Source of the DNA: a virus
Taxonomy: Duplodnaviria; Heunggongvirae; Uroviricota; Caudoviricetes
DNA length: 64,000 nt
IMG/VR virus record: IMGVR_UViG_3300029615_000411
Span: 119,874 to 183,873 of that record
Direction: 5' to 3' (one strand)
Below are positions 3,628-41,900 of the stretch, piece by piece. The translations under genes were made by a program, and so were the position numbers. The notes under the pieces were generated by a model that was given only the letters and a program-made list of their open reading frames with translations, was not told the DNA's origin and did no database searches. Each line of letters begins with the position of its first letter. Position 1 is the stretch's first letter.

Positions 3628-4392
3628 TTAGCTGTTTTCTTCGATGCACAATTTGCTGCTACGAATGTTTTCCAACCATTTTTCATCCATAACATTGCCA
3701 ATACGATACTTCCTCTGGGATTCATAGGACCAGTCACAACCGACGACAGCATCACCGATGGCATTCAGATACAGTTCTCCATCAGTGATATTGATTCCGG
3801 CTTCATTTCTCGGTTTACAATCTCTCTCATATTCAATCACAAGTTCCGAAACTATAGGTTCTCTCTTTAGAATCTGATTTGCGTTGATAGTTTTGGCACG
3901 ACCCTCGTTAATGAGATATTGCTTGCGAAAATCCGTTACTTTATCATTACGATTATATCTCAAACCGCTAAGAATACTCGCACTTTCGCGGGGAATTTCT
4001 TCATGAAAATCATCGCTGCTGATACAAAGACCACACGAATAGTCATCCTTGTCATCGCAATAATTCCACCATTCGAGGCTCGCCAAAGCGAGTTCTACCA
4101 TCTTATCGACGGCTTTCCCGTTGGTTACCATATAAAAACTCCCAACGGAAATGTTTCGCTCTCTTACGGCGTTCAAAGTATAGCGGATAGCAGGAATATT
4201 CAAAGAAATCTCTCCACCCGTGAAGGTCAAGGAACTGATGTATCCTGCATTAGCAAAACTGTCAAGAAACGCATCGATATACTTTTCCTGAATATCGACC
4301 GCCTCCGCATCACCGCGTAAACAATGCGCACAGCACATATTGCAGCGACGCGTAACCTCGATTACCACATTACAAGCGTTTGAAATATACAT
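3628..4392 (-). CDS. radical SAM enzyme (CX3CX2C plus GGE motif) with extra C-terminal cysteines, possible auxiliary Fe-S (twitch/SPASM-like)
   Basis: RRCNMCCAHC = CxxxCxxC; TFTGGEISL SAM-binding motif; 5 further Cys in C-terminal half; AAAGGAG RBS before ATG 4392. Confidence 0.65.
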   Translation of the reverse strand: MYISNACNVVIEVTRRCNMCCAHCLRGDAEAVDIQEKYIDAFLDSFANAGYISSLTFTGGEISLNIPAIRYTLNAVRERNISVGSFYMVTNGKAVDKMVELALASLEWWNYCDDKDDYSCGLCISSDDFHEEIPRESASILSGLRYNRNDKVTDFRKQYLINEGRAKTINANQILKREPIVSELVIEYERDCKPRNEAGINITDGELYLNAIGDAVVGCDWSYESQRKYRIGNVMDEKWLENIRSSKLCIEENS

Positions 4393-4406
4393 CCTATTTA
4401 CTCCTT

Positions 4407-4718
4407 TCACCAATTCTCGTCCGCAAAGCTCTCATTGCGGTCAACGATGATATCCACATCCAGTGGTGTAATTTTACCCAGACCGTAATTCAAGAAGAAC
4501 GAGCCGGGAATGTCATCGACATCGCCCCAGTTCCAGCAACCACAGTTAATTTCAAGCTGTCGTTTGCCTTCGTCCGTCTTGAGATAATCTTTGATTGCGC
4601 CGCGCAGGACGCTTTCCGGGTCATGGATTTGCTCCGGATTATAGCTAAACTGAATCAGTGTGCATTCCACTGCACGGTCAACAATCTCATTAGCAACAAT
4701 TGTAAAAACCTTTGTCAT
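4407..4718 (-). CDS. hypothetical protein (about 103 aa)
   Basis: GAGGAGG RBS before ATG 4718 (MTKVFTIV...). Confidence 0.45.
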   Translation of the reverse strand: MTKVFTIVANEIVDRAVECTLIQFSYNPEQIHDPESVLRGAIKDYLKTDEGKRQLEINCGCWNWGDVDDIPGSFFLNYGLGKITPLDVDIIVDRNESFADENW

Positions 4719-8384: not shown

Positions 8385-9047
8385 TTATGCGAGCATGGGA
8401 TATATTTCTTTCTTTACCGCCCTCATAAGAGCGGCAGCATGTGCGGCGTTTTGTGCATTGCCAACACCTGCGCGAGATATTTTTGGATTCACACGCTCAA
8501 TGAAATTTTTCTTATACGGAGCAGAAATGCTCCTTGCAGCATCGATAATCTGTTTCATGTTTTCAGCGTCGATTTTTTGCTGAACGCATAATTTTTGTAA
8601 CCGTGTGCAAAAAGCGTCTTTGTTGTCCCGTACAGAAGTAGAATGATTTTTTGTTTCTTTATGTGGGATGACTGCCTCACAGGCTATCCGTTTAACGCTT
8701 AACCCTTTACTGCACATGGTCTGAATAAGCCCGTCATATCCCTTGTCTGCCGACACGATGATATAATTGCTTTTCTTTCCTGTTGTGCAAAGACTACCAA
8801 GTTTAGCAACAACGTGGAAATCCATGCTGTTTTTCCCTGCATTGGAGACGCAGAACTCTACTTGGTTGACTGGGTACTTTGCCAGAAAAACCTGCAATTC
8901 TTTAAGTGACATGTATGTGGCTTCCGGACCGATGAAGATAATCAGCTTGTCCTTTTTGGTTTTAAAATGCACTACATTTAGCCATTTTTTTTGGACATTC
9001 TCGGTATCTATCAGCCAAACGGTTCGAGTGCGGCTCACACATTTCAC
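8385..9047 (-). CDS. NYN-domain (LabA-like) putative RNase; GTG start overlapping upstream stop as GTGA
   Basis: WLIDTENV ... NAGKNSMDFHVVAKLG ... IIVSADKGYDGLIQ resembles NYN motifs; GTG at 9047 overlaps TGA of the 9044..9340 gene. Confidence 0.5.
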   Translation of the reverse strand: MKCVSRTRTVWLIDTENVQKKWLNVVHFKTKKDKLIIFIGPEATYMSLKELQVFLAKYPVNQVEFCVSNAGKNSMDFHVVAKLGSLCTTGKKSNYIIVSADKGYDGLIQTMCSKGLSVKRIACEAVIPHKETKNHSTSVRDNKDAFCTRLQKLCVQQKIDAENMKQIIDAARSISAPYKKNFIERVNPKISRAGVGNAQNAAHAAALMRAVKKEIYPMLA

Positions 9048-9340
9048 CCCCACACTTCGGTGACTTTTCTGGGGATTCCGTGCTTGTCGATACACTGCCG
9101 GTAAATTGTAAACTTACTGTTCGGGTGCGCCTTCATATAGTCAGCGCGTGCCGCGTCCGTGTTCGCAATCAGTAGATTTTTATCGGCAATAAGAACGCTT
9201 TCCCATCCGGAATCGAGAAGCGTACTGGCAACATCTTTGAAAGATACGTCTGCAGGCGTATCGCACTTACAAACACCTCGTGCGATAGGATGCGCAGTGG
9301 CAATGATTTTTGCTGCCGTCATCACAGTCTCGTAACTCAT
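9044..9340 (-). CDS. hypothetical protein (98 aa)
   Basis: AGGAGG RBS before ATG 9340. Confidence 0.5.
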   Translation of the reverse strand: MSYETVMTAAKIIATAHPIARGVCKCDTPADVSFKDVASTLLDSGWESVLIADKNLLIANTDAARADYMKAHPNSKFTIYRQCIDKHGIPRKVTEVWG

Positions 9341-10496: not shown

Positions 10497-10814
10497 TTAA
10501 TCTCTGTGATAGCGTTGCATCATACCGAACATAGCCGCAAGCGCCAATGCAAGGTAGATGTAAGTGTATCCCTTTTCAATCATGTTCAGAATCACGATGG
10601 TAAAGCTCGAAAAAGCACCACAATAAAAAGCGGCACCAAGTTTATCGACCAAAAACATCAACATCTGGGCAACGACTGCCGCAGGAACAAGAAGCTTGAG
10701 ACGCTTGGCCTCAATGATTCCGTCCCAGTCAAGAACAGCAATGAAGCTGGCTCCCATGCAGATGACCCAAACAAAAGCGAAAATAAGGGTTGCTGTGTCA
10801 AAAAAGTTACTCAT
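10497..10814 (-). CDS. small 3-TM membrane protein, paralog A; holin-like topology, function unproven
   Basis: GGAGG 8 nt before ATG 10814; about 50% identical to the next gene; ends KRYHR. Confidence 0.45.
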   Translation of the reverse strand: MSNFFDTATLIFAFVWVICMGASFIAVLDWDGIIEAKRLKLLVPAAVVAQMLMFLVDKLGAAFYCGAFSSFTIVILNMIEKGYTYIYLALALAAMFGMMQRYHRD

Positions 10815-10869
10815 ATCAGTTACCTCCAAAATTACTGATGGTTTACGGGTTTATGGACATCGAATCGCA

Positions 10870-11184
10870 TTATCTGTGATAGCGCTTTGTCATGCCAAAC
10901 ATAGCTGCAACCATAATCGCCAAATATGCGTACAAATACAAGTTCTCAATCATTCCAAGAACTGAAATTGTAAGGCTGGCGAACATACCGCAATACAGAA
11001 CAGCACCAATTTTTTTGATGATGAACAGCGTGGCTTGCGCAATGATGGCGACAACGAGAAAAACTTTGATGTATTTAGCCTCAAATAAACCATCCCAATC
11101 GATGGCAAGGAAGATACAAGCCCCCACAGCGAGAGCCCAAACCAAAGCAGCAACAGATGCAACAGCGTCAAAGAAGCTTAACAT
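10870..11184 (-). CDS. small 3-TM membrane protein, paralog B (tandem duplicate)
   Basis: GGAGG 8 nt before ATG 11184; DWDG, AKxxK and MFGMxxRYHR conserved with paralog A. Confidence 0.45.
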   Translation of the reverse strand: MLSFFDAVASVAALVWALAVGACIFLAIDWDGLFEAKYIKVFLVVAIIAQATLFIIKKIGAVLYCGMFASLTISVLGMIENLYLYAYLAIMVAAMFGMTKRYHR

Positions 11185-11237
11185 AGCGAATACCTCCATG
11201 TTTTAAATAGGTTAATGTTCGGACATCTATATAAACA

Positions 11238-11273
11238 GCAAAAAGCCGCCAATGGGACAATCCACTGGCGGCT
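11238..11273 (-). terminator. hairpin plus T-tract after sortase operon / promoter E (GCCGCCAGTGG...CCATTGGCGGC TTTTTG)
   Basis: GC-rich stem plus T5. Confidence 0.55.
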
Positions 11274-11324
11274 CAGTTGCCGATTGCAATAATACAGTTA
11301 AATCATTTGATTTATGTTATGTCT

Positions 11325-11362: not shown

Positions 11363-12334
11363 TCAGAAGACTTCGTCAAGTTTTGCACATACAATAAAAC
11401 GAGTATCGTAATTATCACTGCCTGAACAGGTGGACAAAATCAAAACCTTATCATTCAATCCAACTTCTGTGGCATACTGATTGTAAGAGTAAGCTTTCAT
11501 ACTTGCAATCTCTGTCAGGAAATACGAATCATCCGGATTCGCAATGGTATAACTTGGGTCAATAGGATAATCGGCAACAGCAAAGATTTTCCATCGTGTC
11601 TGTTGTTCACCCAAAGTAAGATAAATATACCGATGTTCCTTTGCAAAGTTGACATCGCGGAAGTATTTCAAAACACTGAATTTCTTGTGCATACTGTTTC
11701 CGTTGCTATGTCCAAAAATAACAGTTACTCTGTACATGTCATCAACATTGCTGACATTCCATTCGGAGGGAACAAAATAAGCGCCCCAGATACTTTCCCT
11801 ATCGAACTCATTGTGAGTCAGGTAATAATCATCGTCTGTGGGATGCTGCAAAATGGGCTCATCTGTAACATCAACGCCGGGAACGGTTAAGTAACCAACG
11901 GTGTTTTTGGAATACGCTGGCTTTGGTGTCGGTTCCGGTTCTGAATCACTCTCACTTGAATTAGAAGACGGGATAAGAATCGAGGGAGTAGAAACGGGTT
12001 CTTCTACATCGTCGGAGATGTTTCCTGTCTCATATGCAGGGATATGATAGTAATCATACGTCTTCCATCCAATATAGCCAATCATGGCAATAAGAACGAT
12101 GCAGATTACGACCAACAAAACTGTCCAGATGGAAAATCGCCGTTTCTCTTTGTCCTCTGACGCGTCCATCGCATCCATCGATTCATTGTCATCCTCGTCA
12201 TGACTTGCCTTTTGATGAGGGAAGTTTTCACCAGTTCCATCATCCTCATCATTTGGAATGTAATTGTACGCACCAAGTTCCTGCTCGAAATGTTCTTCTT
12301 CAGGCAGTGGTGGAATAATAGGTGTTTTTGCCAT
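11363..12334 (-). CDS. sortase family transpeptidase, class-B-like, N-terminal TM anchor
   Basis: Catalytic LILSTC motif, His in TVIFGHS, conserved Arg in TRFIV; TM RRFSIWTVLLVVICIVLIAMIGYIGW; last gene of the secY operon. Confidence 0.75.
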   Translation of the reverse strand: MAKTPIIPPLPEEEHFEQELGAYNYIPNDEDDGTGENFPHQKASHDEDDNESMDAMDASEDKEKRRFSIWTVLLVVICIVLIAMIGYIGWKTYDYYHIPAYETGNISDDVEEPVSTPSILIPSSNSSESDSEPEPTPKPAYSKNTVGYLTVPGVDVTDEPILQHPTDDDYYLTHNEFDRESIWGAYFVPSEWNVSNVDDMYRVTVIFGHSNGNSMHKKFSVLKYFRDVNFAKEHRYIYLTLGEQQTRWKIFAVADYPIDPSYTIANPDDSYFLTEIASMKAYSYNQYATEVGLNDKVLILSTCSGSDNYDTRFIVCAKLDEVF

Positions 12335-12345
12335 AATACATCACC

Positions 12346-13509
12346 TTATTCAGCTGCGGCAGACCGCTCGTACACATCAATGCAGTAGTTGCCCATAATC
12401 TTGTTGTACATGCACTCCTGTGCCAAAGGACCTGCCCCATAGGTATCAACGGCGTTATCATAGTTACTGCCAATATAAGCTTTCACTTCATCGACAGACG
12501 GTTTATAGTCCTGTTCCTCTGCCAGATACTGCGCAACAAGGCTCAGTAAAACATTTTCTTCCGTCTGACTACGAAGACTTTCTGAATACTCCTCCGAGGT
12601 CTTATAATTGCTGTATGTCTGAACGAATGTCTCCAAGTCCATATTGTAGGCAGTTGCTTCGTTTTCGACATACTTCAAGTTGGTTTCAAGACTCAGGATG
12701 ACAAGGTCTGTCGTATCCTTTTTGAGTTTTACATTGTCAATGAAATACTGTTCAATCTCATTCTGAATCTTATTCATACGAAGATTCTCTTCAACATATT
12801 CACGAAGCAGGTCTACTGTAGTTACAGCAGTGCCGTCTTGCAGCTTGTAGCCACTCATGATACCGGCAACATCAGCATCTGTCATGCTATATTGAGAAAT
12901 TTTATTAAGCGTTACATGGAAAACAGCTTCCTTGTTGGCGAGTTCGATAGTCTGCTCGCCTGTAGTTCTATCTGTTGTACTGCTATATCCATCAGGGAAT
13001 GTTACCGTAACATCAAACGAATCCCCCGTGTTATGCCCGACGATTTGCTCTTCAAATCCGTCAATAAAGGTATTGGAACCGAGTTCCAAATCGTAGTCTT
13101 CTGTTGTTCCACCGGTAAAAGCAACACCATCAACCGTACCCTCATAGTCAATGTTCACAACATCGCCTTCCTGTGCGGCGCGGTCTGTTACCTCTGTCGT
13201 CAGCTTGTAATTGGACTGAAAATAATCCAACTCGCTTTGAATCTCCTCGTCTGTAACGGCGTATACATCTTTGCTGACCGTATACTTCTTATAATCCTTG
13301 GGCATCTTTATGTATTTGGACGCAGTCACATCACGAAAATACCCGTCATCATCAAGACCGAGGTCATACTCAACAGCGGAAGCTGTTTCGGAGGTGGCTG
13401 TTTCCGCAGTCTCAGATGCACTTGTATCGGCCGTATCTTTACTGCACGCGGTCAATGCAATACATGCAGCACTGATGACCGCCAGAATCATTTTTGCGTT
13501 TTTCTTCAT
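12346..13509 (-). CDS. lipoprotein with FKBP-type PPIase / trigger-factor-like domain; candidate extracytoplasmic foldase
   Basis: MKKNAKMILAVISAACIALTAC signal plus lipobox; GDVVNIDYEGTVDGVAFTGGT...LELGSNTFIDGFEEQIVGH is the trigger-factor/FKBP PPIase signature; AAAGGAG RBS. Confidence 0.65.
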   Translation of the reverse strand: MKKNAKMILAVISAACIALTACSKDTADTSASETAETATSETASAVEYDLGLDDDGYFRDVTASKYIKMPKDYKKYTVSKDVYAVTDEEIQSELDYFQSNYKLTTEVTDRAAQEGDVVNIDYEGTVDGVAFTGGTTEDYDLELGSNTFIDGFEEQIVGHNTGDSFDVTVTFPDGYSSTTDRTTGEQTIELANKEAVFHVTLNKISQYSMTDADVAGIMSGYKLQDGTAVTTVDLLREYVEENLRMNKIQNEIEQYFIDNVKLKKDTTDLVILSLETNLKYVENEATAYNMDLETFVQTYSNYKTSEEYSESLRSQTEENVLLSLVAQYLAEEQDYKPSVDEVKAYIGSNYDNAVDTYGAGPLAQECMYNKIMGNYCIDVYERSAAAE

Positions 13510-13565: not shown

Positions 13566-13817
13566 TTAAACGAACAGGAACGGAACGTGAAGCAACAGAG
13601 CGTATGCCGCATCCATAATGCCAATAATAACGGCGGATACAGCACTCACAACAAGAACTGCTCCAGTTCGATGGAGCGTGTTGTGCATACTCGGCCAAGT
13701 CACATTTTTGGGTGCAACCAAATTGTGAAGCTTCTTAGGCGTGCTCTTGACGAAAGAAGGAATTGCCTTCACGAAATTCGCAATAGCCGTTCCTACCTTT
13801 TTCAGTTTATCTTTCAT
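13566..13817 (-). CDS. secE: SecE-like preprotein translocase subunit (accessory copy)
   Basis: KNVTWPSMHNTLHRTGAVLVVSAVSAVIIGIMDAAYALL parallels SecE KKVxWPxxKE...T.VV..V....D; ATGA overlap with upstream secG-like gene. Confidence 0.55.
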   Translation of the reverse strand: MKDKLKKVGTAIANFVKAIPSFVKSTPKKLHNLVAPKNVTWPSMHNTLHRTGAVLVVSAVSAVIIGIMDAAYALLLHVPFLFV

Positions 13818-14068
13818 GCCGCACCTCCTACTCCGGTTACTACGAACATGATGATTGCGATAACAAGCAGAATAGCTGTACATACAGCAACCAGTTTATT
13901 TGCGGACGTTTTCGTGCTGTCTTTAGCATTCGAGCGCATTGTATCACTGATTCCGGTGATAACACTAAGACTGTTCTTGTCGGCCTTATCCATGGAAAGC
14001 GTAACCGCACAAACCAGAACAGAAACCAACAGAATCAAGATGCACAGAATGATTTCATAAATTGCCAT
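13814..14068 (-). CDS. secG: SecG-like translocase subunit (accessory copy)
   Basis: 84 aa, two TM with Gly/Ser-containing loop (LSVITGISDTMRSN...) as in SecG; immediately downstream of secY, translationally coupled to secE-like. Confidence 0.45.
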   Translation of the reverse strand: MAIYEIILCILILLVSVLVCAVTLSMDKADKNSLSVITGISDTMRSNAKDSTKTSANKLVAVCTAILLVIAIIMFVVTGVGGAA

Positions 14069-14083: not shown

Positions 14084-15424
14084 TCAATTCAAGAAACCCT
14101 TGTGATGGCGAACCACCAAATGGCTGTTAAGAGAATCGATAACTTCAAGCGTAACACCTGTGACAATCAACAGACTGGTACCGCCAAAGTGCATGTTCAG
14201 ACCTGTAACCGCAGTTGCCAAGATAGGCACACATGCAATAACCGAAAGAACAAATGCTCCCGAACCGGCGAGAGAATGGCAAGCATTGCGCAAATAATCA
14301 CTGGTAGCTTTGCCTGCTCGAATACCGGGGATACTGCCGCCGTTCTTGCGCAGGTTGTTTGCCATTTCGATGGGGTCGAATGTGATGTCGATGTAGAATA
14401 AGTTGAATGCGAAAATCAGGGCTACATACGCAACATCATAAATCCAATTCCGCGAATTCCAAGATGCCAGCGCCATATACAGGCTGGGGTGCTTGTTGTA
14501 ATCGAGGAACATCGTCACGAGAGACGGCATACTGCAAATGGTGGACGAGAAAATAATAGGCATAACACCCGACATAATCAGTTTGATGGGGATATAACTG
14601 GACTGACCAGTGGATGCTTTGTTCCCCACATTTTTACCGGCATACTGAACAGGAACGCGGCGCTCTGCATCGCTTGCGAAAACGACATAGAAGGTGGCCG
14701 CCAAAACAAAGAGGATGACGCCGGGAATCATCAGATAATACCACCATCCATTTTCTTTGCCCATTGCAATAGAGTTCTGGAACAACGAGATGACAGCATC
14801 CCATCTGGAAATGATACCGATAAAGATGATAAGGGAAATACCGTTGCCAATACCTTTTTCGTCAATCAGCCATCCAAGCCAGATGACGATTTGAGAACCA
14901 GCAGTCAGAATGGCAATAACAGTAATGGCTTCCACGACCTGCGAAATGCCGGAAGTGTATTTCATCGCACCGTAGTTCTTCATAATAAAGAAGTACCCGA
15001 TAGCTGTTACGACCGCCAAACCACAACCAACATACTGCGTGATTTTATTGATTTGCTTCTGCCCGCCGATGTCCTTGCTGATTTCTTCCAGTTTCGGAAT
15101 CGCAACAGTCAAAAGCTGGATGATGATGCTTGCGTTGATGTATGCAGATACGCCAATCGCAAATACCGCACACTGAGAAAGTGCGCCACCGGAAACCAGA
15201 TTGTAATAATCCAGTACAGAGGTGCTTCCGAACATAGTCTGAAGCGCAGCGGTGTTTACGAACGGAATCGTAATACCGCAACCCAGACGATAAATCAGAA
15301 GACAAAGGATGGTGAAGAGAATCTTGTTGCGAACATCATCCACCATCAGCTTCTGGAAGATGGTGCTGTTCGAATAAGACTTTTTGAGTTTCGGCTTTTT
15401 CGCCGGATTTTTAATGTTGTCCAA
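14084..15424 (-). CDS. secY: SecY family protein-conducting channel, second non-ribosomal-context copy (SecY2-like)
   Basis: GITIPFV, SQIVIWLGWLIDEKGIGNGISLIIF, VPVQYAGK, YIPIKLIMSGVMPIIFSSTI, NLRKNGGSIPGIRAGKATSDYL, FGGTSLLIVTGVTLEV; TTG start with GGAAGGAG RBS; no rplO/adk/map neighbours. Confidence 0.85.
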   Translation of the reverse strand: MDNIKNPAKKPKLKKSYSNSTIFQKLMVDDVRNKILFTILCLLIYRLGCGITIPFVNTAALQTMFGSTSVLDYYNLVSGGALSQCAVFAIGVSAYINASIIIQLLTVAIPKLEEISKDIGGQKQINKITQYVGCGLAVVTAIGYFFIMKNYGAMKYTSGISQVVEAITVIAILTAGSQIVIWLGWLIDEKGIGNGISLIIFIGIISRWDAVISLFQNSIAMGKENGWWYYLMIPGVILFVLAATFYVVFASDAERRVPVQYAGKNVGNKASTGQSSYIPIKLIMSGVMPIIFSSTICSMPSLVTMFLDYNKHPSLYMALASWNSRNWIYDVAYVALIFAFNLFYIDITFDPIEMANNLRKNGGSIPGIRAGKATSDYLRNACHSLAGSGAFVLSVIACVPILATAVTGLNMHFGGTSLLIVTGVTLEVIDSLNSHLVVRHHKGFLN

Positions 15425-15448: not shown

Positions 15449-15724
15449 TTATCGAGCAAAGAAAGCAACGATGATTCGCATCAGAAAGGCTACAACGGCC
15501 AACTTCGTTGCAAGCCACATGAACCAATCGAGTTTGTCGATACCTTCGTCGAATACATTTGTTGCGGCAGCATCTTTTTTGTTACTGTCGCAATCCCCGT
15601 CAACATGGTTTTTCTTGATTTTGTTGCGATTAAGCACAAACAAAGTTCGAAACAAAGCCCATGTTGCAATACAGAATCCGTATACGATTAGAAGCTCGAT
15701 ACAGAAACTGTGCAAAGACGACAT
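15449..15724 (-). CDS. small 2-TM membrane protein; possible extra translocon subunit
   Basis: 91 aa, two hydrophobic helices; TAATG overlap with upstream gene; directly precedes secY. Confidence 0.4.
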   Translation of the reverse strand: MSSLHSFCIELLIVYGFCIATWALFRTLFVLNRNKIKKNHVDGDCDSNKKDAAATNVFDEGIDKLDWFMWLATKLAVVAFLMRIIVAFFAR

Positions 15725-16401
15725 TAAGCGGATGCGCCGTTGGCGTCAGGAGTCGTATTGGAGGCGGTCTCGGCAACGGCCTCTACCGGAGTTTCCGTGA
15801 CAGTCTCTGCAGGAGAAGTGATATCCCCGGTGATTGTGGGGACGTTGGCATCTTCTGCGACCGACTCATTGACGGGCGCTTCAATAACCGCATCCTTGAC
15901 TCCATCAGCAGTCACTTTCTTTGCTGCGATTTTTGCGAAGTGCTCATTGCGCTTTTCACGGCAAGCCTTGCAGCGGGTGGGGAACTTGTAGTCATGGACG
16001 ACATACCAGTACAGCTCGCGATTGGTAAACTGCAGCTTCTGACCGCAATCTGCGCAGGTGTCTTCCAGACCGATGTTATCCAGCCCGCGCTTCACGAAGT
16101 CGCGATGAATTTTGCGGCATTCCGGGCAGCGGTTCGGCAGAGAATAACCGTGACTCTCGAAGAAATCGCGGTCACGATTGGTGATGTCGAATTCATGACC
16201 GCAGTCAACGCACTTGCGGGTCTCAAACACCTCATTGCTCTTTGCATCAGCTTCCTTGCGAGCTTCATCCTCTGCGCGGCGTTTTGCGAAATCGTCACGC
16301 ATACGACACTCGCGGCACAGCACCTCGCTCTCATTGGCGGTGCTGAACGGCTTGTTGCACTTCTCACAGGTCTTGCGGAACTTCTTTGCTGCATCTTTCA
16401 T
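15724..16401 (-). CDS. zinc-ribbon protein with five CxxC...CxxC units and acidic tail
   Basis: CEKCNKPF..CREC, CVDCGHEF, CPECRK, CADCGQK, CKACREK. Confidence 0.5.
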   Translation of the reverse strand: MKDAAKKFRKTCEKCNKPFSTANESEVLCRECRMRDDFAKRRAEDEARKEADAKSNEVFETRKCVDCGHEFDITNRDRDFFESHGYSLPNRCPECRKIHRDFVKRGLDNIGLEDTCADCGQKLQFTNRELYWYVVHDYKFPTRCKACREKRNEHFAKIAAKKVTADGVKDAVIEAPVNESVAEDANVPTITGDITSPAETVTETPVEAVAETASNTTPDANGASA

Positions 16402-24208: not shown

Positions 24209-25168
24209 TTAAATTTCACCGCTCATGGTCAGCTTTGCACGAGCCATGATTTCATATCCTTTTGCATTTGCGGTTACATCCGTCAAGAAGAAAAGGTTCT
24301 TGGTGTCAATGGCTCGCTCGATGCTTTCGCGCATCATAGCAGAACCACCGCCCATAAAGATGAAATAGGATGTTTTGAAATCGTCCTTGATTTTTTCGGA
24401 AATCGTACGAATCAATGCTGTTGCATAATTGTCTGCGGTTTCCTTGGCAATTTTCACGGCGTTTTCATCGACCAGCATGTTGTTGTTCCCTGCAAGGATT
24501 GCCTCAGCCATGTAGTCATCGACCGACAAGGAACAATGGACACGCAGCTCGCTCTCGACAGTGCTCAGGAGTTCAATGACTCCACGGTCATAGCTTTCGC
24601 AGAAAGAAAGGTCCGGAGCATAAGTGTTGCCACGACCAGAGAAACGAATCACATCCGTGGTATACCCGCCGATGTCTACGACATAAGAACGGGGATAGCG
24701 CTTGATTTCCTTCTGAATCTCGCTTGCTGCCGTAATAGAAAAGCCCTGAGGATAGACAAAGACATGCTTGACAGTAATCTCAAACGGGATATCTTTGTAC
24801 ATGAAATTGATGAGTTTCCCGCTTTTGCCGAAATACTCATCATACTTCGCTTTCAGGGACATATGCTGCGGGGGCAAGCCCATCGCGAGGCATACATCGT
24901 ATTTGTAGAATTTCTGATTGGGATACTTCTTTATAAGGTTCTTTGCTACGGCAATCAGCGTCAGCAAAAAGTAAGTGTCATCCTTCGTCTTATCCTGCTG
25001 ATAAGGCGTACGGCTGTCATTGAGGGAATAATACTTCCCCATGTAGCACATCGTCTCTCCCTTGATAGCCGGTTCAGTCGTACCATGACGAACAAGACCA
25101 GTGGGAAACGGCTCACAGCCAGGCGTCTTCATTGCCTTGTTTCCGGTATCTACTCCAATAATCTCCAT
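24209..25168 (-). CDS. parM: actin-like ATPase, ParM/StbA/Alp family plasmid segregation protein
   Basis: MEIIGVDTGNKAMK (phosphate-1), VVDIGGYTTDV (phosphate-2), IFMGGGSAMM (adenosine) motifs; GGAGGA RBS before ATG 25168. Confidence 0.65.
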   Translation of the reverse strand: MEIIGVDTGNKAMKTPGCEPFPTGLVRHGTTEPAIKGETMCYMGKYYSLNDSRTPYQQDKTKDDTYFLLTLIAVAKNLIKKYPNQKFYKYDVCLAMGLPPQHMSLKAKYDEYFGKSGKLINFMYKDIPFEITVKHVFVYPQGFSITAASEIQKEIKRYPRSYVVDIGGYTTDVIRFSGRGNTYAPDLSFCESYDRGVIELLSTVESELRVHCSLSVDDYMAEAILAGNNNMLVDENAVKIAKETADNYATALIRTISEKIKDDFKTSYFIFMGGGSAMMRESIERAIDTKNLFFLTDVTANAKGYEIMARAKLTMSGEI

Positions 25169-25264
25169 AAAAAATCCTCCGAACGAGTCGCAATATAGTT
25201 GAAAGTACGAATTTTGGGATACTCTGCGTGATAAAATATAAGTGTCTACCAGATAACAATGGGA

Positions 25265-25395
25265 CTCACTGACTGATGCATAGCAGTTGTTAAAACGGAA
25301 AGAACAACTAATATACAACTACCTGTTGTTATCATGATACCACACATGCAGTTGTCCAGCAACGAACTTTTGTTCGCATAGACAACAAAAAAGAA
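25265..25395. promoter_or_regulatory. iteron cluster (at least 7 copies of CAGTTGT/ACAACTG-like 7-8-mers, both orientations) between the ParM-like gene and the XRE gene; candidate parC centromere or operator
   Basis: agCAGTTGTt, gAACAACTa, tACAACTAc, cTGTTGTTa, gCAGTTGTc, tTGTTCGc, GACAACAa within about 120 bp. Confidence 0.4.
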
Positions 25396-29036: not shown

Positions 29037-29555
29037 TTAAATAATCGAGAACTTACGCTTTTTGTTTGTGAACTCAACAATCATAGAAGGACGACGACTG
29101 CCGATAGTCTCTTTCCGATTCTCAGAGTCAATGAACAGATAAGGGTTCGTCATCTTGATTCTGGCAGGCAGAAACTTTACCCTTACTCCCTGCTGTCCAT
29201 AAATGTATCTCTGGAACCAGTCAGAGTCCGTAGAAACGGGTAAAAGCATGACGACCGTGGTATTCTTTTTCCTTGACTCCTCGTACGCCTTGCGCACCCA
29301 CAACTTAAAGGACTTATGCCCTGTCGGGGGATTGCAAAATACTGTTTCACCTTTCCAGTCCTGCAAGAGACCATCGACACGCTCCGTGTAATATTTCTTG
29401 CATTTATGATTTTTGTCCGATGCAGCCGCATCCAGAGTGAAACCGTATTCCTTGTTCAGGTCATCGAAAAGCCCCTGAGGCGTCTCCCATTCCTGTTTGT
29501 GAGTATTCTTGACTGCATAAGTCTTATCCGTTGTTTTCGTTTCTACGCTGTTCAT
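29037..29555 (-). CDS. phage-type DNA N6-adenine methyltransferase (Dam family), orphan
   Basis: WETPQGLFDDLNKEYGFTLDAAAS...YYTERVDGLLQDWKGETVFCNPPTG matches phage Dam signature; motif IV is NPPT rather than NPPY/DPPY. Confidence 0.7.
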   Translation of the reverse strand: MNSVETKTTDKTYAVKNTHKQEWETPQGLFDDLNKEYGFTLDAAASDKNHKCKKYYTERVDGLLQDWKGETVFCNPPTGHKSFKLWVRKAYEESRKKNTTVVMLLPVSTDSDWFQRYIYGQQGVRVKFLPARIKMTNPYLFIDSENRKETIGSRRPSMIVEFTNKKRKFSII

Positions 29556-31223: not shown

Positions 31224-32759
31224 TTATTTTATATCGCTTGCGTTTTCGTCAGGTTCGATGTGCGCATTGTCATCAGCCTTCTCGATTGCAGGCAAACCGT
31301 GAATGTTGATATTGCGGTCGGTCTTAGCATTGATACTGTTCGCACGAACGATATCGGCCATATCAATACCGGTAGCTTCCTTGACGGTCTGCATGGTCTG
31401 TGCCATCAGCACGGGAACATTCCCAGACACGCCGGAAACGCCAGATGCATCGCCGCCGATAATAGATACCTTATCGATTGCGGACAAGGGCTGAGCCACA
31501 TTCTTAGCAATATCAGGCAGGACCTTGATAAGCATTTCAGCGACAGCGGCATCGTTGTACTGCTTGTAAGCCTCCGCTTTTTGCTTCATAGCTTCGGCTT
31601 CAGCAATACCCTTCTGACGGATAGCCTCAGCTTCTGCCTTACCTACAAGGGCAATACCTTCGGCTTCCTGTTGCTTTGCAAATTTCTGAGCCTCAGCAGC
31701 GCGTTCGGCTTCGTATTTTTTTGCTTCTGCTTCTTTTTGGCGTTTATACAATTCGGCATCCGCAGCTTTGCGAACCTCTGCATCCAGTTTTCTCTGCTGA
31801 ACCTCGGCTTCCTGTGCAGCAAGGTCGACCATCTTCTTCTGCTTTGCAATTTCCGCATCAGCTTCGGCTTCTTTGATTTCCTTGGCGCGAAGATTTGTCT
31901 GAATCTGTCCTGCAGCGTTGGCATCGGCAGCAGCCTTGTCAGCCTCGGCCTTCAATTTGGCCTTTGCCAGCTGCAATTCATTGTTGCGCTGTGCAATAGC
32001 AGTCTGGGCTTCAACTTCCTTTTCATTGGCTGCCATTTCAGCGTCAGCCTTTGCGCGAGCAATATCACGAGCGGCTTCGGCGCGAGCAATCTCTGCGCGT
32101 TTCTTGACGGCTTCTTCCTGCTCAATACCAATAGCCTCAATGACGCCGTGATTGTGACCCTGCGCATCGACGGCGTCTTTTACATCCTGCACATTGAAGG
32201 TCACAACTTCAAGACCCATTTTTGCAAGGTCAGGACGGGCATTTTCGATTACTGACAGCGCCATTTGTTTACGATTTGTGAGAATCTGGTCAACCGTCAT
32301 ATCCGAAACGATTTCGCGCAGGTTGCCTTGCAAGACATCATTTACTTTGTCATTGATGCCTTTTTCGTCCATGCCAAGGAAGTTCGAAATAGCCGACTGC
32401 TGACGACCCGTAATATATTCCTTGACATCCTTTGCACCAGATGCCTGAACCTCAGAGTCGAGAACAGTAGAATTATCGCTGTATACCTGAATCGTTACAA
32501 CAGAATCAATCCAGAGCGATACGCCTTCTTTTGTCTTGACACCTGTCTCAGGGGTTTTGACATCAATTTTCAGAAGACGCATATTCAGCTTATCTGCACG
32601 CTGCAGCACAGGGATGACGAATGTACCCTTTCCGCAAACGACTTTTGGCTTTTTCAAGCCAAATCCAGTCACAACGATGGCTGCTGTGGGAGGCGCTTTT
32701 TTGTAGCATGTGAATGCGAACAAAACAAACAATACGACAATGATGATTCCTAAAAACAT
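31224..32759 (-). CDS. flotillin-like SPFH/band-7 protein (FloT-like) with Ala/Glu-rich coiled-coil repeats
   Basis: N-terminal TM, SPFH domain, then long AEAxxKxxAEA flotillin-type repeats; terminator follows. Confidence 0.75.
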   Translation of the reverse strand: MFLGIIIVVLFVLFAFTCYKKAPPTAAIVVTGFGLKKPKVVCGKGTFVIPVLQRADKLNMRLLKIDVKTPETGVKTKEGVSLWIDSVVTIQVYSDNSTVLDSEVQASGAKDVKEYITGRQQSAISNFLGMDEKGINDKVNDVLQGNLREIVSDMTVDQILTNRKQMALSVIENARPDLAKMGLEVVTFNVQDVKDAVDAQGHNHGVIEAIGIEQEEAVKKRAEIARAEAARDIARAKADAEMAANEKEVEAQTAIAQRNNELQLAKAKLKAEADKAAADANAAGQIQTNLRAKEIKEAEADAEIAKQKKMVDLAAQEAEVQQRKLDAEVRKAADAELYKRQKEAEAKKYEAERAAEAQKFAKQQEAEGIALVGKAEAEAIRQKGIAEAEAMKQKAEAYKQYNDAAVAEMLIKVLPDIAKNVAQPLSAIDKVSIIGGDASGVSGVSGNVPVLMAQTMQTVKEATGIDMADIVRANSINAKTDRNINIHGLPAIEKADDNAHIEPDENASDIK

Positions 32760-35991: not shown

Positions 35992-38900
35992 TTACTGCTT
36001 CTTTTCCTCGGTTTTATCCTCAGTCTTTTCAGCAGCTTTTTCTTCGCTATCGCCCTTCTTCTTCTTGACGATGACAAATGCGCCAACGCCAATCAGAGCA
36101 ACAACAACGATAACAGGAACGATGATGTCTGCGCCAAAACCAACGCCAGTCTTGTAGTTAACTACAACAGGTGCCGGAGTGGGAGCGGGTTCATTCTTAA
36201 CTACAGGAGTCGGAGTCGGTCTGCTTTCTTCCGGAGGATTCTCCAGCTTAACACTTGCTACCCGAACATCACCGTAGTTGCCTGCCTTATCGACTGTACG
36301 GGTCACAATGTAACCAGTCCAATCGGGACTCAGCTTGAAGGTAACGTAACCGTTGTCCTTATCAATGTTTGTGACATTGACAGTCTCGAACTTGGTTTCG
36401 TCGAAGGTGTAATCGCCCTTAGCACTCTTGGCAATAGCAGAACCATTGACCTTGTAATACTGAATCTTAGCGACACCGGAGTTGTACTCGCCATCCAGAG
36501 CGGAAATAGCAGGAACGGAATCCTTGACCTTTACAACAGGCACGAAGTCAGGGTCTTCGGTATCGTCCTTATCACCGTTTTCGTCGGGAGTAGCAACGCC
36601 ATCGTTACCGTTTTCATCACCGGTCTCGTCGCCGGTTGTGAAGAGAGCGGGCTTACCATGAGCAATACGAAGCGTAGTGGCTTCGGTCTTGTCATCGGTT
36701 GTTTCGGTCTTCTCGGACTCGCTGGGAACTTTCTCCTCGGTACCGGATTCGGTTTCATCCTTCTTGTCGGAATCTTCCTTCTTATCGGTATCGTCGGCAT
36801 CGTCCTTCTTGTCGTCTTCCTTCTCAGGTGCCTTGCCGGTCTCTTCACCAGTAATGAACACATTGATGGTGCTCTCGAACTTGACGAACTTCTCGTTCAG
36901 CAAATCTGTCTTATTGGTGGAATCAACCTTATCGGCAGCGAAAGCAGAAGCAACGACAGGAGCTTCGGTATCAACAGATGTGGTGATAGTTCCCATCTCG
37001 GTAATGGCACCGGTCTTCAGGTCAATCAAGTAATAGGTAGAAGTAACCTTCTCACTATTAGCGGAAATGACCATCTTCTCGGCCCACTCAGCATCGGTCA
37101 GGGAATCGCTGGTTCCGATTGCGTAACCCTTAGGAGCGATAACTTCAACCTCAGAGTTGAAGTACAGGTCACTCAGGTCATCAGTCGTCTTCTTGGTAAC
37201 CTCAACAGGCTTACCGGTCTTTTCGTCAGCCACAGTACCAACGATAGTTGCGGGTTCTACATCGGCAAGATGCAGACGCTGGACTTCGATGTCTCCGGTG
37301 GTAGGCAGGTAATTGTAGTTGTCGTAAGCGCCGCCAACATACTTGAAAGCGTCCTTCGTCAAGCCAACATTACCGAAGATACCATCGATGCTGGAAGCAA
37401 CAATGAGTTCGAAGGAAGGCAGCTTAACGGTTTCAGCAGTCTCGTCGAAAGCGTAACCACTGGTCTTGATTTCGGGAATCTCCGTCTTAGTGCCATACAG
37501 CTTGACGACGGGGTTCGGGTCGAGAGTAACCGTCAGGTCTTTACGAGCGATAACGAACTGACCATCGGCTTCGTTCTTATCGGCATCGACGACATTGATT
37601 GTTACTGCGTAATTCTGCTCAACAGCAGCATCGTAATCAGAGGTAACGGTGTAGGTGTAAGTACCAGCGTTCTTGACATTCTCAGTCTTGAACTGGCTGT
37701 CGCTCTCCACGCCGTCATCGCCGCTGGCGATGTCAGGAGTCAGAGTCGCCTTTGCATCAGCAGTCAAGGGAGCAGTCTGTGCATTGTCGGTGGTCTTATC
37801 GTTCTCGAAAGGAGTATAAACAAGTGCCATCTTCAGGCCCAGAGAATCAGGTTTGACAGCTGCACCGTGTGTACCGTCGCCATTGGTGGCAACAGCATTT
37901 ACGGTGAAGTCGGGGTTAGTGGTATCGCCATAGACGATATCCTTGGGCTCGGTGACAGTGACTTCGACCAGACGTTCGCCAATGGTATAAACGCCATTAA
38001 CAATCGTAATCAGGTAATCGTCATTGTCGTAAGAACCGACCATGTCGTATGCACCGTAATTCTTGACAGATTCGGGCACGCTCTCCGCAACCAGAGAAGC
38101 AGCACCGTCAGCAGACTTCATGGAAATCTCTTCGGCAACCGCATTCTCAACATCCTTCTGAGTGATGCTGATAATAGCTTTCAGGTCATCGCCATTTACG
38201 ATGGTCTTCTTATCGGCATCGCCAGTATAGGTAAGAGTATTGCTCAGTTCAGCCATTTCATTGCCGTAGACAGAACCAACAGTTCCGATGGTCCAAGTCA
38301 GAGGACGCTGAGTGACCGTGTAAGTGCCGTTCATAGCAGTTACTAGATAATCCTGATAAGAAGCCTGACCGACGCGGTGAGCCAGACCGGAGAAGGAAGG
38401 AACAATGTCATAGCCTCCGACATGGCTTGCAGAAGTGACGAGGCACAGGTTCGTGCCTTCCAGAATATCACCATTGACCAGAGCTGCCTTGGCAGTGTCA
38501 CCAGTGTATTCCAGAACGTTCACGGTACCGTAATCAGACCAATCTTCAACAGCAACATCGTCGCCATAGATAGAAGTCTGGGGTTTAGCGGTGACAGTGA
38601 TGGGACGCTTGTCGATAACAAAATCAACGGGAGCGTAAACAAAGGTGTAGTTGTTTGCTGCGGCATTCTCAACATTTGCAGGAACGACCTTGCCGGTACC
38701 AGCGTGAGAAGCTACCGTTGCGGGAGCTCCCTCAGCATCGGTAAAGTTGAAGGTCAGGTTTGCAATGCTCAGGACACCAGCATCATCGGGAGTGGTGTTG
38801 CCCTTGACGGGTTTCACAACGAATCCATCGAAAATCAGGTCATCGCCGGAGAGAACAGGGTTCTCATCGCCGTAAATCTTGCTCTGAGCTGCCAGAGTGA

Positions 38901-41900
38901 CATTCAGAGTAGCAGGAGTGATTTCGAAGGTGTTGTTTACGCGGGTGATGTTGAAGTTGACATCGTCGCCCTCGATAATCATCGGGTGCTTGCCGACATC
39001 TTCACCAGCATCGGTGCCAGCGTCAGGACGAACAACCTTCAGGTTTGCAAGGTCACCTGCATCTTCGCTTACATAGTAAGCGCCGTCGCCAGTTGCAGTC
39101 CAAGTCAGTTCGGGGTCAGCCTCGCCGTAGACCTTCTTCTGGCCTTCGTCAACAACCACGATTACATCGCGCTTATCGACATGCAGAGAACCATCAACAA
39201 AGACGATGGGGTCATAGTTCTTTGCGCCCTTGTTTTCCAGACCGCTCATGGTGATGACATAATCGCCAGCAGCAGGACGAGCAGGAATCTCGGACAGAGA
39301 ACCGTCAGCATTCTTGATGTTGTAGACAACCGAGCCAGTAAATGCGGAAGCAACGGTGTCATTGTTCTTCAAGCCAGTAACGGTGTAGCTGAACGTGGGA
39401 ACGGTGCCGCCATAAATCATGGAGTAACCGCCAGCCACGGTAAAGGTGACCTTAACGGGCTTGATGGTCAGAGTAGCAACTTCCAGAGCCTCGGGCTCAG
39501 TGGTGGAAGAACCAACGTCGACGGAAGTGCCGGAGCCAGTCACGATGGTGATGGCGTAGTTGCCGTACTTGTTGTACAGAGTAGAGCTGATGTGGTATTC
39601 ACCGACATCCTCACCGGCTTTGCGAGTAACAGAGCCGCTCAGAGCACCAGTAGTCAGTTCCAGCGTATTCTTCTTCAGACCATCGTTGGAAATGTTGCCG
39701 GAAATCTCGCTGTAAGAGAATGCGGGGTCTGCATCGCCGTAATCCTTCTCGTAGTTGGAGAAAGTCAGGGTGATGGGACGATGAGTGATGGTGATGGTAG
39801 AATCAATCACCGTCAGGTCGTAGTTGGCAGGCTGTGCGTAGATAGCTTTCAGAGCATAAGTGCCAACGCTTGCGGAAGCAGAAGTTGCACCGGAAGTCAG
39901 GGTAATGCCCTTAAGAATCTTTTCGGCTTCTGCTGCCTGAACATCAGTAGTAGTCAGCAGACCAGTGCCGCCCTTGATGTAATCCTTCACGTTCATAGAA
40001 GTGAGGGTCTCACCATAGGTCTTTTCGGTTTCAAGCAGGTTGATAACGGCAGTACGCTTATTGATGGTGAAGCGAACATCATTGGTGAAGCTGATACGAT
40101 AGTTCTTTGCCATCGTCTGCTCATAGATGTTACCGCTGTAAATCGGATAAGTGCCAGCGTTCTCGCCTGCTTCACGGCTCAGACGAGCCTGTGCGAAGTC
40201 GGCCTTGGGTTCTGCGAAGCTGGTGGTATTGTAGTCGAAGATGACATAGGTATCGTTGACTGCAAAGCTGGGGTCAGTCTCGCCGTAAGTCTTGGACAGG
40301 CCATAGCGAGGAGTGATGGTCAGGGGCATCTGATGAACAATCAGCATGTTCTTGCCATCGGGCTCAGACAGCTTAACGCTGTTTGCGGGCTGGTTATCCA
40401 GACGGAAGGTCAGGTTGTAAGAACCTGCATCGTACAGACCAGAAGCGTTCGCAGTAGCCTCAACGGCGATACGAACAACGCCCAGAGAAACATCCTTGCC
40501 GTCCATCTTGATGTTGACGGTTTCGCCATCGTGGTAAATCTGAGTGCCATCGGAGGTATTCACATTGACGGAAACTTCCTTGGCGATGGTATCGGGCTTC
40601 TTCTCACCGTAAGTAGTCTGCAGTGCGTTGAAGGTGACAGAGACATCAGCCTCGGTGACTTGGAACGTAGCCTGCGGGGCAATCGTTACGATGTAGTTGG
40701 GGTTCTCATCATAAGAGATGGTAGCCTCATAGTTGCCGACAACCGTAGTGGGGTCTTCCCACTTGGTCAGGTCGATGTGGATGTTCAGCGGGCTGCCCTG
40801 CGGGTCAACCACATTGATAGCCTGAGAACCGGTCTCGTCATACAGCGCATAGCTGGGGGTGTTCTTACCGGCAACGCCGTACTTACGGACGCTGTTGGTA
40901 GTACCCTTGATGGTGACAGGCAGTGCATTGATAGTCAGCGTACCGCTTGTACCATCGCTGTAAGTGCCGGTGTAAACGATGTTGTAGTTGGGGTTGGTGT
41001 AACCGGAAACAACAATAGGATAGGTACCAACACCAGTCAGCTTACCAACGGTATTGTCAACGCCATACTTGATGGTGACAGTGCCGCCCAGAGAAGCGAC
41101 GGTATCATGGATGCCAATTTCATCGTTGCTTGCGAAGTTCTTGTATTCCAGTGCGCCGGTAATATCGGCATCGCTGGGATTCTCTGCGCCATACAGACGC
41201 TCACGGTTCGGAACAGTGATGGTCAGAGTACGCTTGGTGATAGTGTACTTATCGGGAGCATTGAAGGTGATGTCGTAGTTCTTGGCGATTTCAGCAGTCT
41301 GGAACTGTGCATCGCTGTAAGCGTAAGAGCCAACAGTCTCGCCGACCTCACGAGTCACAACGCAGCCAGCAAAGTCGGAGCCAACACGGCCGCCCTTGCC
41401 ATTGACGGGGTCAAGAGTAAAGGCAACGCCGCCCTTGGCATCACTGTCGCCGTAAACCTTCGTCTGACCACCCATCACATTGATGGCGATAGGACGCTTG
41501 GTGACGGTCAGCTTGCTGTTGACAAAACGAACCAGATAGTTGTCGTAACGGTCGTAGTTCTTGCCATCGGCATTGGGGTCCCAGTCAGAAGACCAACGCT
41601 CCTGAGAAGCACCCTGCACAGATGCGCTGACGGTGTATTCGCCAACATTGGCAGTTGTAGGAGTGCCGCTGTTGCCAGCCGCATCTACCATAGTAAAGCC
41701 AAGCTTGTCCTCGGTCAAACCGATGCTTGCCTGTGTATCGTTCAGCTTGAAACCTTCGATGGATTTAATCTTGCCGGAACGAGCAGCGCCATACATTGCG
41801 GACAGGTCATCGAGAGTGACAGTCAGCATTGCAGGATGGATGATGTACTTGCTGTTGATGACCTTGACGTCATAGTAAGCAGTGCATGCAGGGGGAACTT

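Follow-up and report, generated by a model that had tools for sequence, protein, structure and literature searches.

The 64-kb stretch of DNA analysed here (the window) carries a plasmid-borne SecY gene, directly followed by two small overlapping genes that encode SecE and a SecG-like protein. It is considered quite probable that the window belongs to a Hodor megaplasmid whose own SecYEG-type operon would export giant surface proteins. Hodors have been described in a preprint (Yuan et al., bioRxiv 22 Feb 2026; PMC12934698), and both small genes are already known from that work and from the names given to them in public annotation.

The two small open reading frames were found on the minus strand with the coordinates, translations and overlap that the earlier note had given. 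The first, from 14068 to 13814 with an ATG start, encodes a SecG-like two-helix membrane protein of 84 aa, a probable third translocon subunit. The second, from 13817 to 13566, encodes SecE (83 aa), and its start ATG lies inside the stop of the SecG-like gene, the overlap being the ATGA at 13817-13814. Both are preceded on the same strand by Shine-Dalgarno sequences, GGGAGGG at 14082-14076, 7 nt ahead of the SecG-like start, and AGGAGG at 13829-13824, 6 nt ahead of the SecE start and within the 3' end of the SecG-like gene. The first site is kept in the related sequences L001, L005 and L007, and an equivalent GGAGGG lies ahead of SecE in the other Hodor group. The start codons of both genes are conserved in the relatives compared, as are the Shine-Dalgarno sites.

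It was considered whether reading frames this short, in a region that an antisense ORF of 157 aa also spans, might be chance ORFs or decaying pseudogenes. When the window was compared with the L001 and L005 lineage of the other Hodor group (about 74.5% nucleotide identity across the module), dN/dS was 0.09-0.10 for the SecG-like gene, 0.07-0.08 for SecE and 0.045 for SecY, at synonymous sites that are near saturation (pS 0.66-0.74). Because the ratios are low despite this near-saturation, the small ORFs stand beyond chance. Moreover, both are unbroken in all lineages examined, whereas three to five stops interrupt the antisense ORF (13587-14060, plus strand) in all but one of the four distant lineages, and secY/G/E were reported to be co-transcribed in a metatranscriptome (PMC12934698). 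An origin by chance or decay is left with practically no probability and is regarded as already refuted; both ORFs are conserved protein-coding genes under strong purifying selection. The antisense ORF, open in close relatives, was rejected as a gene and is a by-product of sense-strand coding.

The exact 84-aa and 83-aa proteins each occur on at least 1000 public contigs (NCBI, JGI/IMG, ENA, Logan), and one source names them 'preprotein translocase subunit SecG' and 'preprotein translocase SecE subunit', respectively. A longer SecE form of 105 aa was rejected. It would begin at the ATG at 13883 with a 22-aa N-terminal extension that sits in the SecG frame, and no record of it was found in a collection of 15 billion proteins. 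Since this form is absent and the 83-aa form is recorded, the earlier note was right to place the start at the internal ATG at 13817 and to call the extension spurious, and it was wrong to expect that standard annotation would miss the two genes.

By the curated cut-offs of Pfam and NCBIfam, the 83-aa product is SecE. It scored 33.4 bits against Pfam SecE (PF00584; cut-off 22.7) and 30.9 bits against TIGR00964 (cut-off 27.55), and the profile of its family matched 13 distinct solved SecE sequences. The motif KNVTWPS...TGAVLVVSAVSAVIIGIMD aligns with the solved SecE chains, the KNVTWPS...D segment lining up with the hinge and transmembrane helix of the T. maritima, E. coli and T. thermophilus proteins. 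The (K)V(T/S)WP(S/T) hinge motif is thus present, and it is followed by one C-terminal hydrophobic helix (residues 52-80). The earlier description of this ORF as SecE-like, with a SecE-type motif, is borne out by the two cut-offs passed and by the aligned solved chains.

The 84-aa protein has the general layout of SecG. Hydropathy analysis placed hydrophobic helices at about residues 6-25 and 59-79, flanking a polar loop of net positive charge, and the AF2 monomer likewise consists of two helices. Its length falls in the range of about 70-110 aa expected for SecG, as does its topology of two transmembrane helices joined by a loop. The loop contains much Ser, Thr and Lys and a single Gly, so the 'Gly/Ser loop' of the earlier note was half right. 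The AF2 monomers of the two small proteins are low-confidence helices (pLDDT 67 and 57), and a Foldseek search with the SecG-like model returned only noise.

Profile comparison, the check named in the earlier note, came out differently for the two proteins, with SecE above the cut-offs and the SecG-like protein below them. The 84-aa protein scored 18.8 bits against Pfam SecG (PF03840; cut-off 29.2) and 20.4 bits against TIGR00810 (cut-off 30.85). As controls for the Pfam scan, the reversed sequence and nine shuffles that keep the helix-loop-helix segments were used. None of these ten topology-preserving controls matched SecG, and the shuffled ones reached 15-19 bits against arbitrary membrane families, Asp5 included. 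Because the shuffled controls score alike against unrelated families, a single-sequence SecG score of this size is at the level of noise.

The family as a whole gave a more consistent picture. SecG was the only or best Pfam match, over the full length, in eight of the nine further family members scanned, P0055 having none, and the distant member P0060 exceeded the Pfam cut-off of 29.2 with 34.3 bits. These nine include six diverged members recovered from a search of 1.84 billion protein representatives, of which five (29-49% identical) had SecG as their only or best Pfam match, the sixth being P0055. When the SecG-like family was aligned by hhalign with six canonical SecG sequences, each of them checked at 52-87 bits to PF03840, the alignment was colinear with E=0.0015 and a probability of only 16.7%. 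In this alignment, only the Lys after helix 1 pairs with an invariant Lys of canonical SecG. The Gly-rich motif that follows helix 1 in SecG (LLQ.GKG.G...FG) was not found in the SecG-like loop (MDKADKNSLSVITGISD...), and neither the family profiles nor single sequences of the SecG-like family matched solved SecG chains.

In six lineages (the window type, the L001 type, L009-11, L012, L013/14 and L022-26), the SecG-like gene is flanked by those for SecY and SecE, and this order holds down to 29% identity. An exhaustive profile search of the 1.84 billion protein representatives found only 11 SecG-like proteins and a profile search of 5.8 billion proteins found 83, all of them in the mobile-element clade; neither search reached a bridge to chromosomal SecG. 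The 84-aa product belongs to a clade that is found only in large mobile elements and always between SecY and SecE.

These results could also be read as the mark of an unrelated two-helix protein that was recruited to the plasmid SecY as a subunit or regulator and is analogous, not homologous, to SecG, Asp5 or Sec61-beta. Such an origin would suit the scores under the curated cut-offs, the 16-19 bits that shuffled two-helix controls reach against arbitrary families including Asp5, the closed family with its 11 and 83 members and the loop that lacks the Gly-rich motif. It fits less well with the repeated appearance of SecG as the best full-profile Pfam match in independently diverged members, one of which is over the cut-off, with the failure of every control to match SecG and with a size, topology and position that are those expected for SecG. 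It is considered unlikely. The SecG assignment is lifted by the consistency of the family, by the one member over the cut-off, by the profile-profile alignment and by the conserved position, and the 84-aa protein is, with fairly high confidence on these comparisons, a probable but very divergent SecG homologue. Whatever its ancestry, its standing as a putative third subunit of the plasmid SecY is rated higher still. The homology proposed in the earlier note is upheld to this extent: the protein of the window itself stays under the Pfam and TIGRFAM cut-offs, and weak support comes from family consistency, from P0060 and from position.

The SecY channel subunit (446 aa, TTG start) is encoded at 14084-15424 on the minus strand. 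It is of the canonical type, scoring 330 bits against TIGR00967 (cut-off 253.6) and 146 bits against the SecY2 model TIGR02920 (cut-off 249.6). The protein is full length and keeps the IPGIRAGK cytoplasmic loop motif. Its nearest counterpart in the plasmid collection is the SecY from the spc operon of Subdoligranulum variabile, a member of the Clostridia, with which it aligns colinearly at 45% identity. An intrinsic terminator at 13559-13531 (minus strand; 13-bp stem with 8 G-C pairs and a T tract) closes secY-secG-secE. An equivalent hairpin lies 3' of SecE in L001, L005 and L007, and the terminator agrees with the two transcription units reported for the module (PMC12934698). The genetic linkage of SecE and the SecG-like protein to SecY is conserved across lineages. 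As the earlier note had proposed, the 84-aa and 83-aa proteins, encoded directly downstream of a non-chromosomal SecY, most likely form its putative partner subunits.

The order of genes on the minus strand is zinc-finger protein, 91-aa ORF, SecY, SecG-like protein, SecE, FKBP/trigger-factor-like protein and class B sortase-like protein. The treble-clef zinc-finger protein upstream of SecY (225 aa; 15724-16401; Pfam zf_Tbcl, E=1.1e-9) is probably the 'hyp' of the published Hodor module; in L001-L008, L013/14 and L022-26 it likewise precedes SecY. Between it and SecY in the window, an ORF of 91 aa (15449-15724) shows two hydrophobic segments. The exact 91-aa protein is a 'hypothetical protein' on at least 1000 contigs. 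This ORF is specific to the lineage of the window; the other Hodor group lacks it and has a gap of 84 nt in its place. Its product might be one more small membrane protein that joins the translocon.

Downstream of the SecE terminator, also on the minus strand, lies the gene for a trigger-factor-like FKBP prolyl isomerase of 387 aa with a lipoprotein signal peptide (12346-13509; FKBP_C, E=1.3e-16, and Trigger_C). The match to TIGR00115 covers profile positions 108-371 only, from which it follows that the ribosome-binding N-domain is missing. The signal peptide is MKKNAKMILAVISAACIALTAC, and the lipobox LTAC/LAAC is kept in L001, L005 and L014. Given the lipoprotein signal and the missing ribosome-binding domain, the 'trigger factor' is most likely an extracytoplasmic, PrsA-like foldase and not a cytosolic ribosome-associated chaperone. 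The next gene, whose position downstream of the FKBP gene is conserved in relatives, encodes a class B sortase-like transpeptidase of 323 aa with an N-terminal membrane anchor (11363-12334, minus strand; TIGR03064, E=5.7e-22, below the cut-off). It is followed by an intrinsic terminator at 11243-11274 on the same strand (13-bp stem and T tract).

Just downstream of this terminator, two tandem paralogous multi-helix membrane proteins of about 110 aa are encoded on the minus strand at 10497-10829 and 10870-11199. Both start with MEV...FFD and end with ...MFGM.(Q/K)RYHR, and no family match was found for them. Other minus-strand genes of the window include those for a ParM/Alp-like actin (24209-25318), a flotillin/SPFH protein (31224-32759), a Dam-type adenine methyltransferase (29037-29555), a PIN7 nuclease-like protein (8385-9095) and a radical SAM protein (3628-4413).

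Two giant surface proteins encoded on the minus strand are the likely cargo of the translocon. The first (35992-43944), about 2650 aa long, bears a Sec signal peptide and, at the C-terminus, a sorting signal. Its N-terminus, MQKPRKRFLSAIVAVAMCLSQFAPVTAYA, is a classical signal peptide, and its C-terminus (window 35992-36100) contains NYKTGVGF followed by a hydrophobic helix and a Lys-rich tail. In relatives, genes near the sec module encode homologues that measure 2619-2631 aa and contain an MBG_2 domain. The second giant protein (44372-64000) exceeds 6540 aa, its ORF being open to the end of the window, and it ends similarly (window 44372-44480), with NKKTGIGF, a hydrophobic helix and a Lys-rich, charged tail. 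Motifs of the NPQTN/NPKTG type are class B sortase-type signals, and N(K/Y)KTG would fit these. The N(K/Y)KTG(I/V)GF ends would suit the adjacent class B sortase as a non-LPXTG sorting signal.

These elements can be assembled into a plausible scheme. The megaplasmid carries its own three-gene translocon operon, secY - secG-like - secE, closed by the intrinsic terminator, and behind the terminator a second unit with the lipoprotein FKBP/trigger-factor-like foldase and the class B sortase. SecY, the SecG-like protein and SecE may assemble in the host membrane into a SecYEG-type channel. Its motor would probably be the host SecA or the ribosome, because no SecA-sized gene lies in the window and SecA is never mentioned in PMC12934698. 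Through this channel, the two giant signal-peptide-bearing surface proteins of the plasmid would be exported. The lipoprotein prolyl isomerase would fold them on the outer side of the membrane, and the sortase would attach them to the wall via the N(K/Y)KTG sorting signal.

The plasmid SecYEG might instead serve secretion in general, as a second translocon with no special tie to the two giant proteins, and might add secretion capacity or give independence from variation of the host Sec system across Bacilli and Clostridia. A SecY of the canonical type would be in keeping with such a role, as would the triad of L009-L011, which has no adjacent FKBP or sortase gene, and the roughly 20 kb of other genes that separate the giant genes from secY in the lineage of the window. 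However, the triad adjoins the FKBP lipoprotein and sortase genes in four lineages and lies near giant adhesin genes in both Hodor groups, and these genes are among the few that both groups have in common (PMC12934698). A general-purpose role is therefore thought rather improbable, although it keeps some weight, and a channel that serves the giant proteins is the preferred reading.

In sequence and gene content, the window fits a segment of a conjugative megaplasmid of the 'Hodor' type from Bacillota of the human gut. Over 7.3 kb it shares 98.6% identity with the 346-kb contig IMGVR_UViG_3300023499_000220, and there are relatives of up to 389 kb. In the preprint, 'hyp, SecY, SecG, SecE, trigger factor' lie beside a class B sortase in both Hodor groups, and giant proteins of more than 7300 aa (7309-7704 aa) and of about 2640 aa carry signal peptides and sorting signals; the genes of the sec module and of the giant proteins are among the few common to both groups. 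Models of the SecYGE complex and trees of SecY/G/E are also included (PMC12934698). The module of the window has the same composition, hyp-SecY-SecG-SecE-trigger factor-class B sortase, with two giant sorting-signal proteins. According to PMC12934698, Hodors are circular, measure about 211-389 kb, come from the human gut and encode Rep_3, ParA/B, ParM and a type IV secretion system; they first turned up in a collection of huge phages. Rep_3, ParA/B and the type IV secretion system were not seen within the 64-kb window. The same genes, two giants, a ParM-like gene, gut origin and related contigs of 346-389 kb are held in common with the published sec module (PMC12934698), nothing essential differs, and the window is taken as a member.

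The megaplasmid contigs L016-L021 (up to 389 kb) are filed by IMG/VR as viral UViGs, which fits the first detection of Hodors among huge phages. No relative was found among GTDB species-representative genomes, and searches of plasmid and phage collections with the 5.2-kb module DNA returned nothing useful. Among the papers searched, none but PMC12934698 describes the Hodor sec module.

The triad of SecY, SecG-like protein and SecE also occurs in at least four more distant lineages (L009-L011, L012, L013/L014 and L022-L026), on large gut contigs of up to 296 kb and with SecG-like proteins that are 29-42% identical. The triads of L013/14 and L022-26 have the same zinc-finger and FKBP lipoprotein neighbours and those of L009-11 have neither; in L012 a ParM/Alp-like gene lies near the triad. 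In addition, positions 1-315 of the window match positions 9735-10052 of L009 (318 bp, 86% identical), a lineage that is otherwise distant. This stretch may reflect a gene that the element families have exchanged or that both have conserved. A bolder reading, offered tentatively and considered doubtful, is that the operon is a portable, self-contained cassette shared among large gut elements of six or more deep lineages. Its small subunits would pair only with the plasmid SecY, giving a channel orthogonal to that of the host. If this were true, megaplasmids could export adhesins of more than 7000 aa in Bacillota hosts that are phylogenetically far apart and would not block the housekeeping SecYEG, and the mobile-element SecG clade and the extracytoplasmic trigger-factor-like lipoprotein would reach well beyond the two published Hodor groups.

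A complete SecYEG channel on a mobile element is unusual. Its presence suggests that these megaplasmids, which are widespread in the gut, come equipped to export their two giant wall-anchored surface proteins themselves. Such proteins are probably important for contact between cells and for the spread of the plasmid. This point was already made in PMC12934698, and no new biology is added to it here. What the present analysis contributes is a solid SecE call, a SecG call that draws on context and family consistency instead of significant similarity, and a resemblance to Asp4/Asp5 that is one of analogy only. Furthermore, the SecG-like clade is restricted to such elements, the lipoprotein 'trigger factor' has no ribosome-binding domain and the triad extends to at least four more distant lineages.

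The earlier note had likened the two small proteins to Asp4 and Asp5 of accessory Sec systems. In Streptococcus gordonii, such a system comprises SecA2, SecY2 and Asp1-5, and SecY2 combines with Asp4 and Asp5 in a SecYEG-like complex that serves a serine-rich adhesin (PMC5076819). The Hodor module, too, appears to offer an additional, dedicated channel in which two small membrane proteins accompany SecY, and it is genetically linked to very large adhesins of the cell wall. An extra SecY and its two small companions beside very large sortase-anchored adhesins, together with the SecYEG-like complex formed by SecY2-Asp4-Asp5 (PMC5076819), might invite the conclusion that the locus is itself a member of the SecA2/SecY2/Asp system and that the small proteins are Asp4 and Asp5. 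Neither small protein matched the Asp4 or Asp5 profiles at E<=1, however, and the SecY is far below the cut-off of the SecY2 model and passes the canonical one. No SecA2, Asp1-3 or glycosyltransferase (Gtf) domains were found in the 36 window ORFs scanned. The largest ORF of the window outside the two giant genes and their antisense ORFs is at most 556 aa, and since none exceeds this length the window contains no SecA2. Membership is refuted, with only the slightest probability left to it. The analogy drawn in the earlier note holds as a functional resemblance and fails as kinship. The likely cargo differs as well, carrying MBG-type domains in place of the serine-rich repeats of the accessory Sec system.

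A further comparison is with the housekeeping SecYEG. The plasmid SecY and SecE pass the equivalog models, and the putative third subunit is likewise a two-helix protein, although the plasmid SecG-like protein is without the Gly-rich loop of housekeeping SecG and the N-terminal amphipathic segment of the plasmid SecE is longer. The arrangement of the genes also differs. Chromosomal secY lies in the spc ribosomal-protein operon, as was seen in L015, and chromosomal secE and secG lie away from it. Whereas the housekeeping genes are scattered in this way, the plasmid secY, secG-like and secE genes are brought together in one operon.
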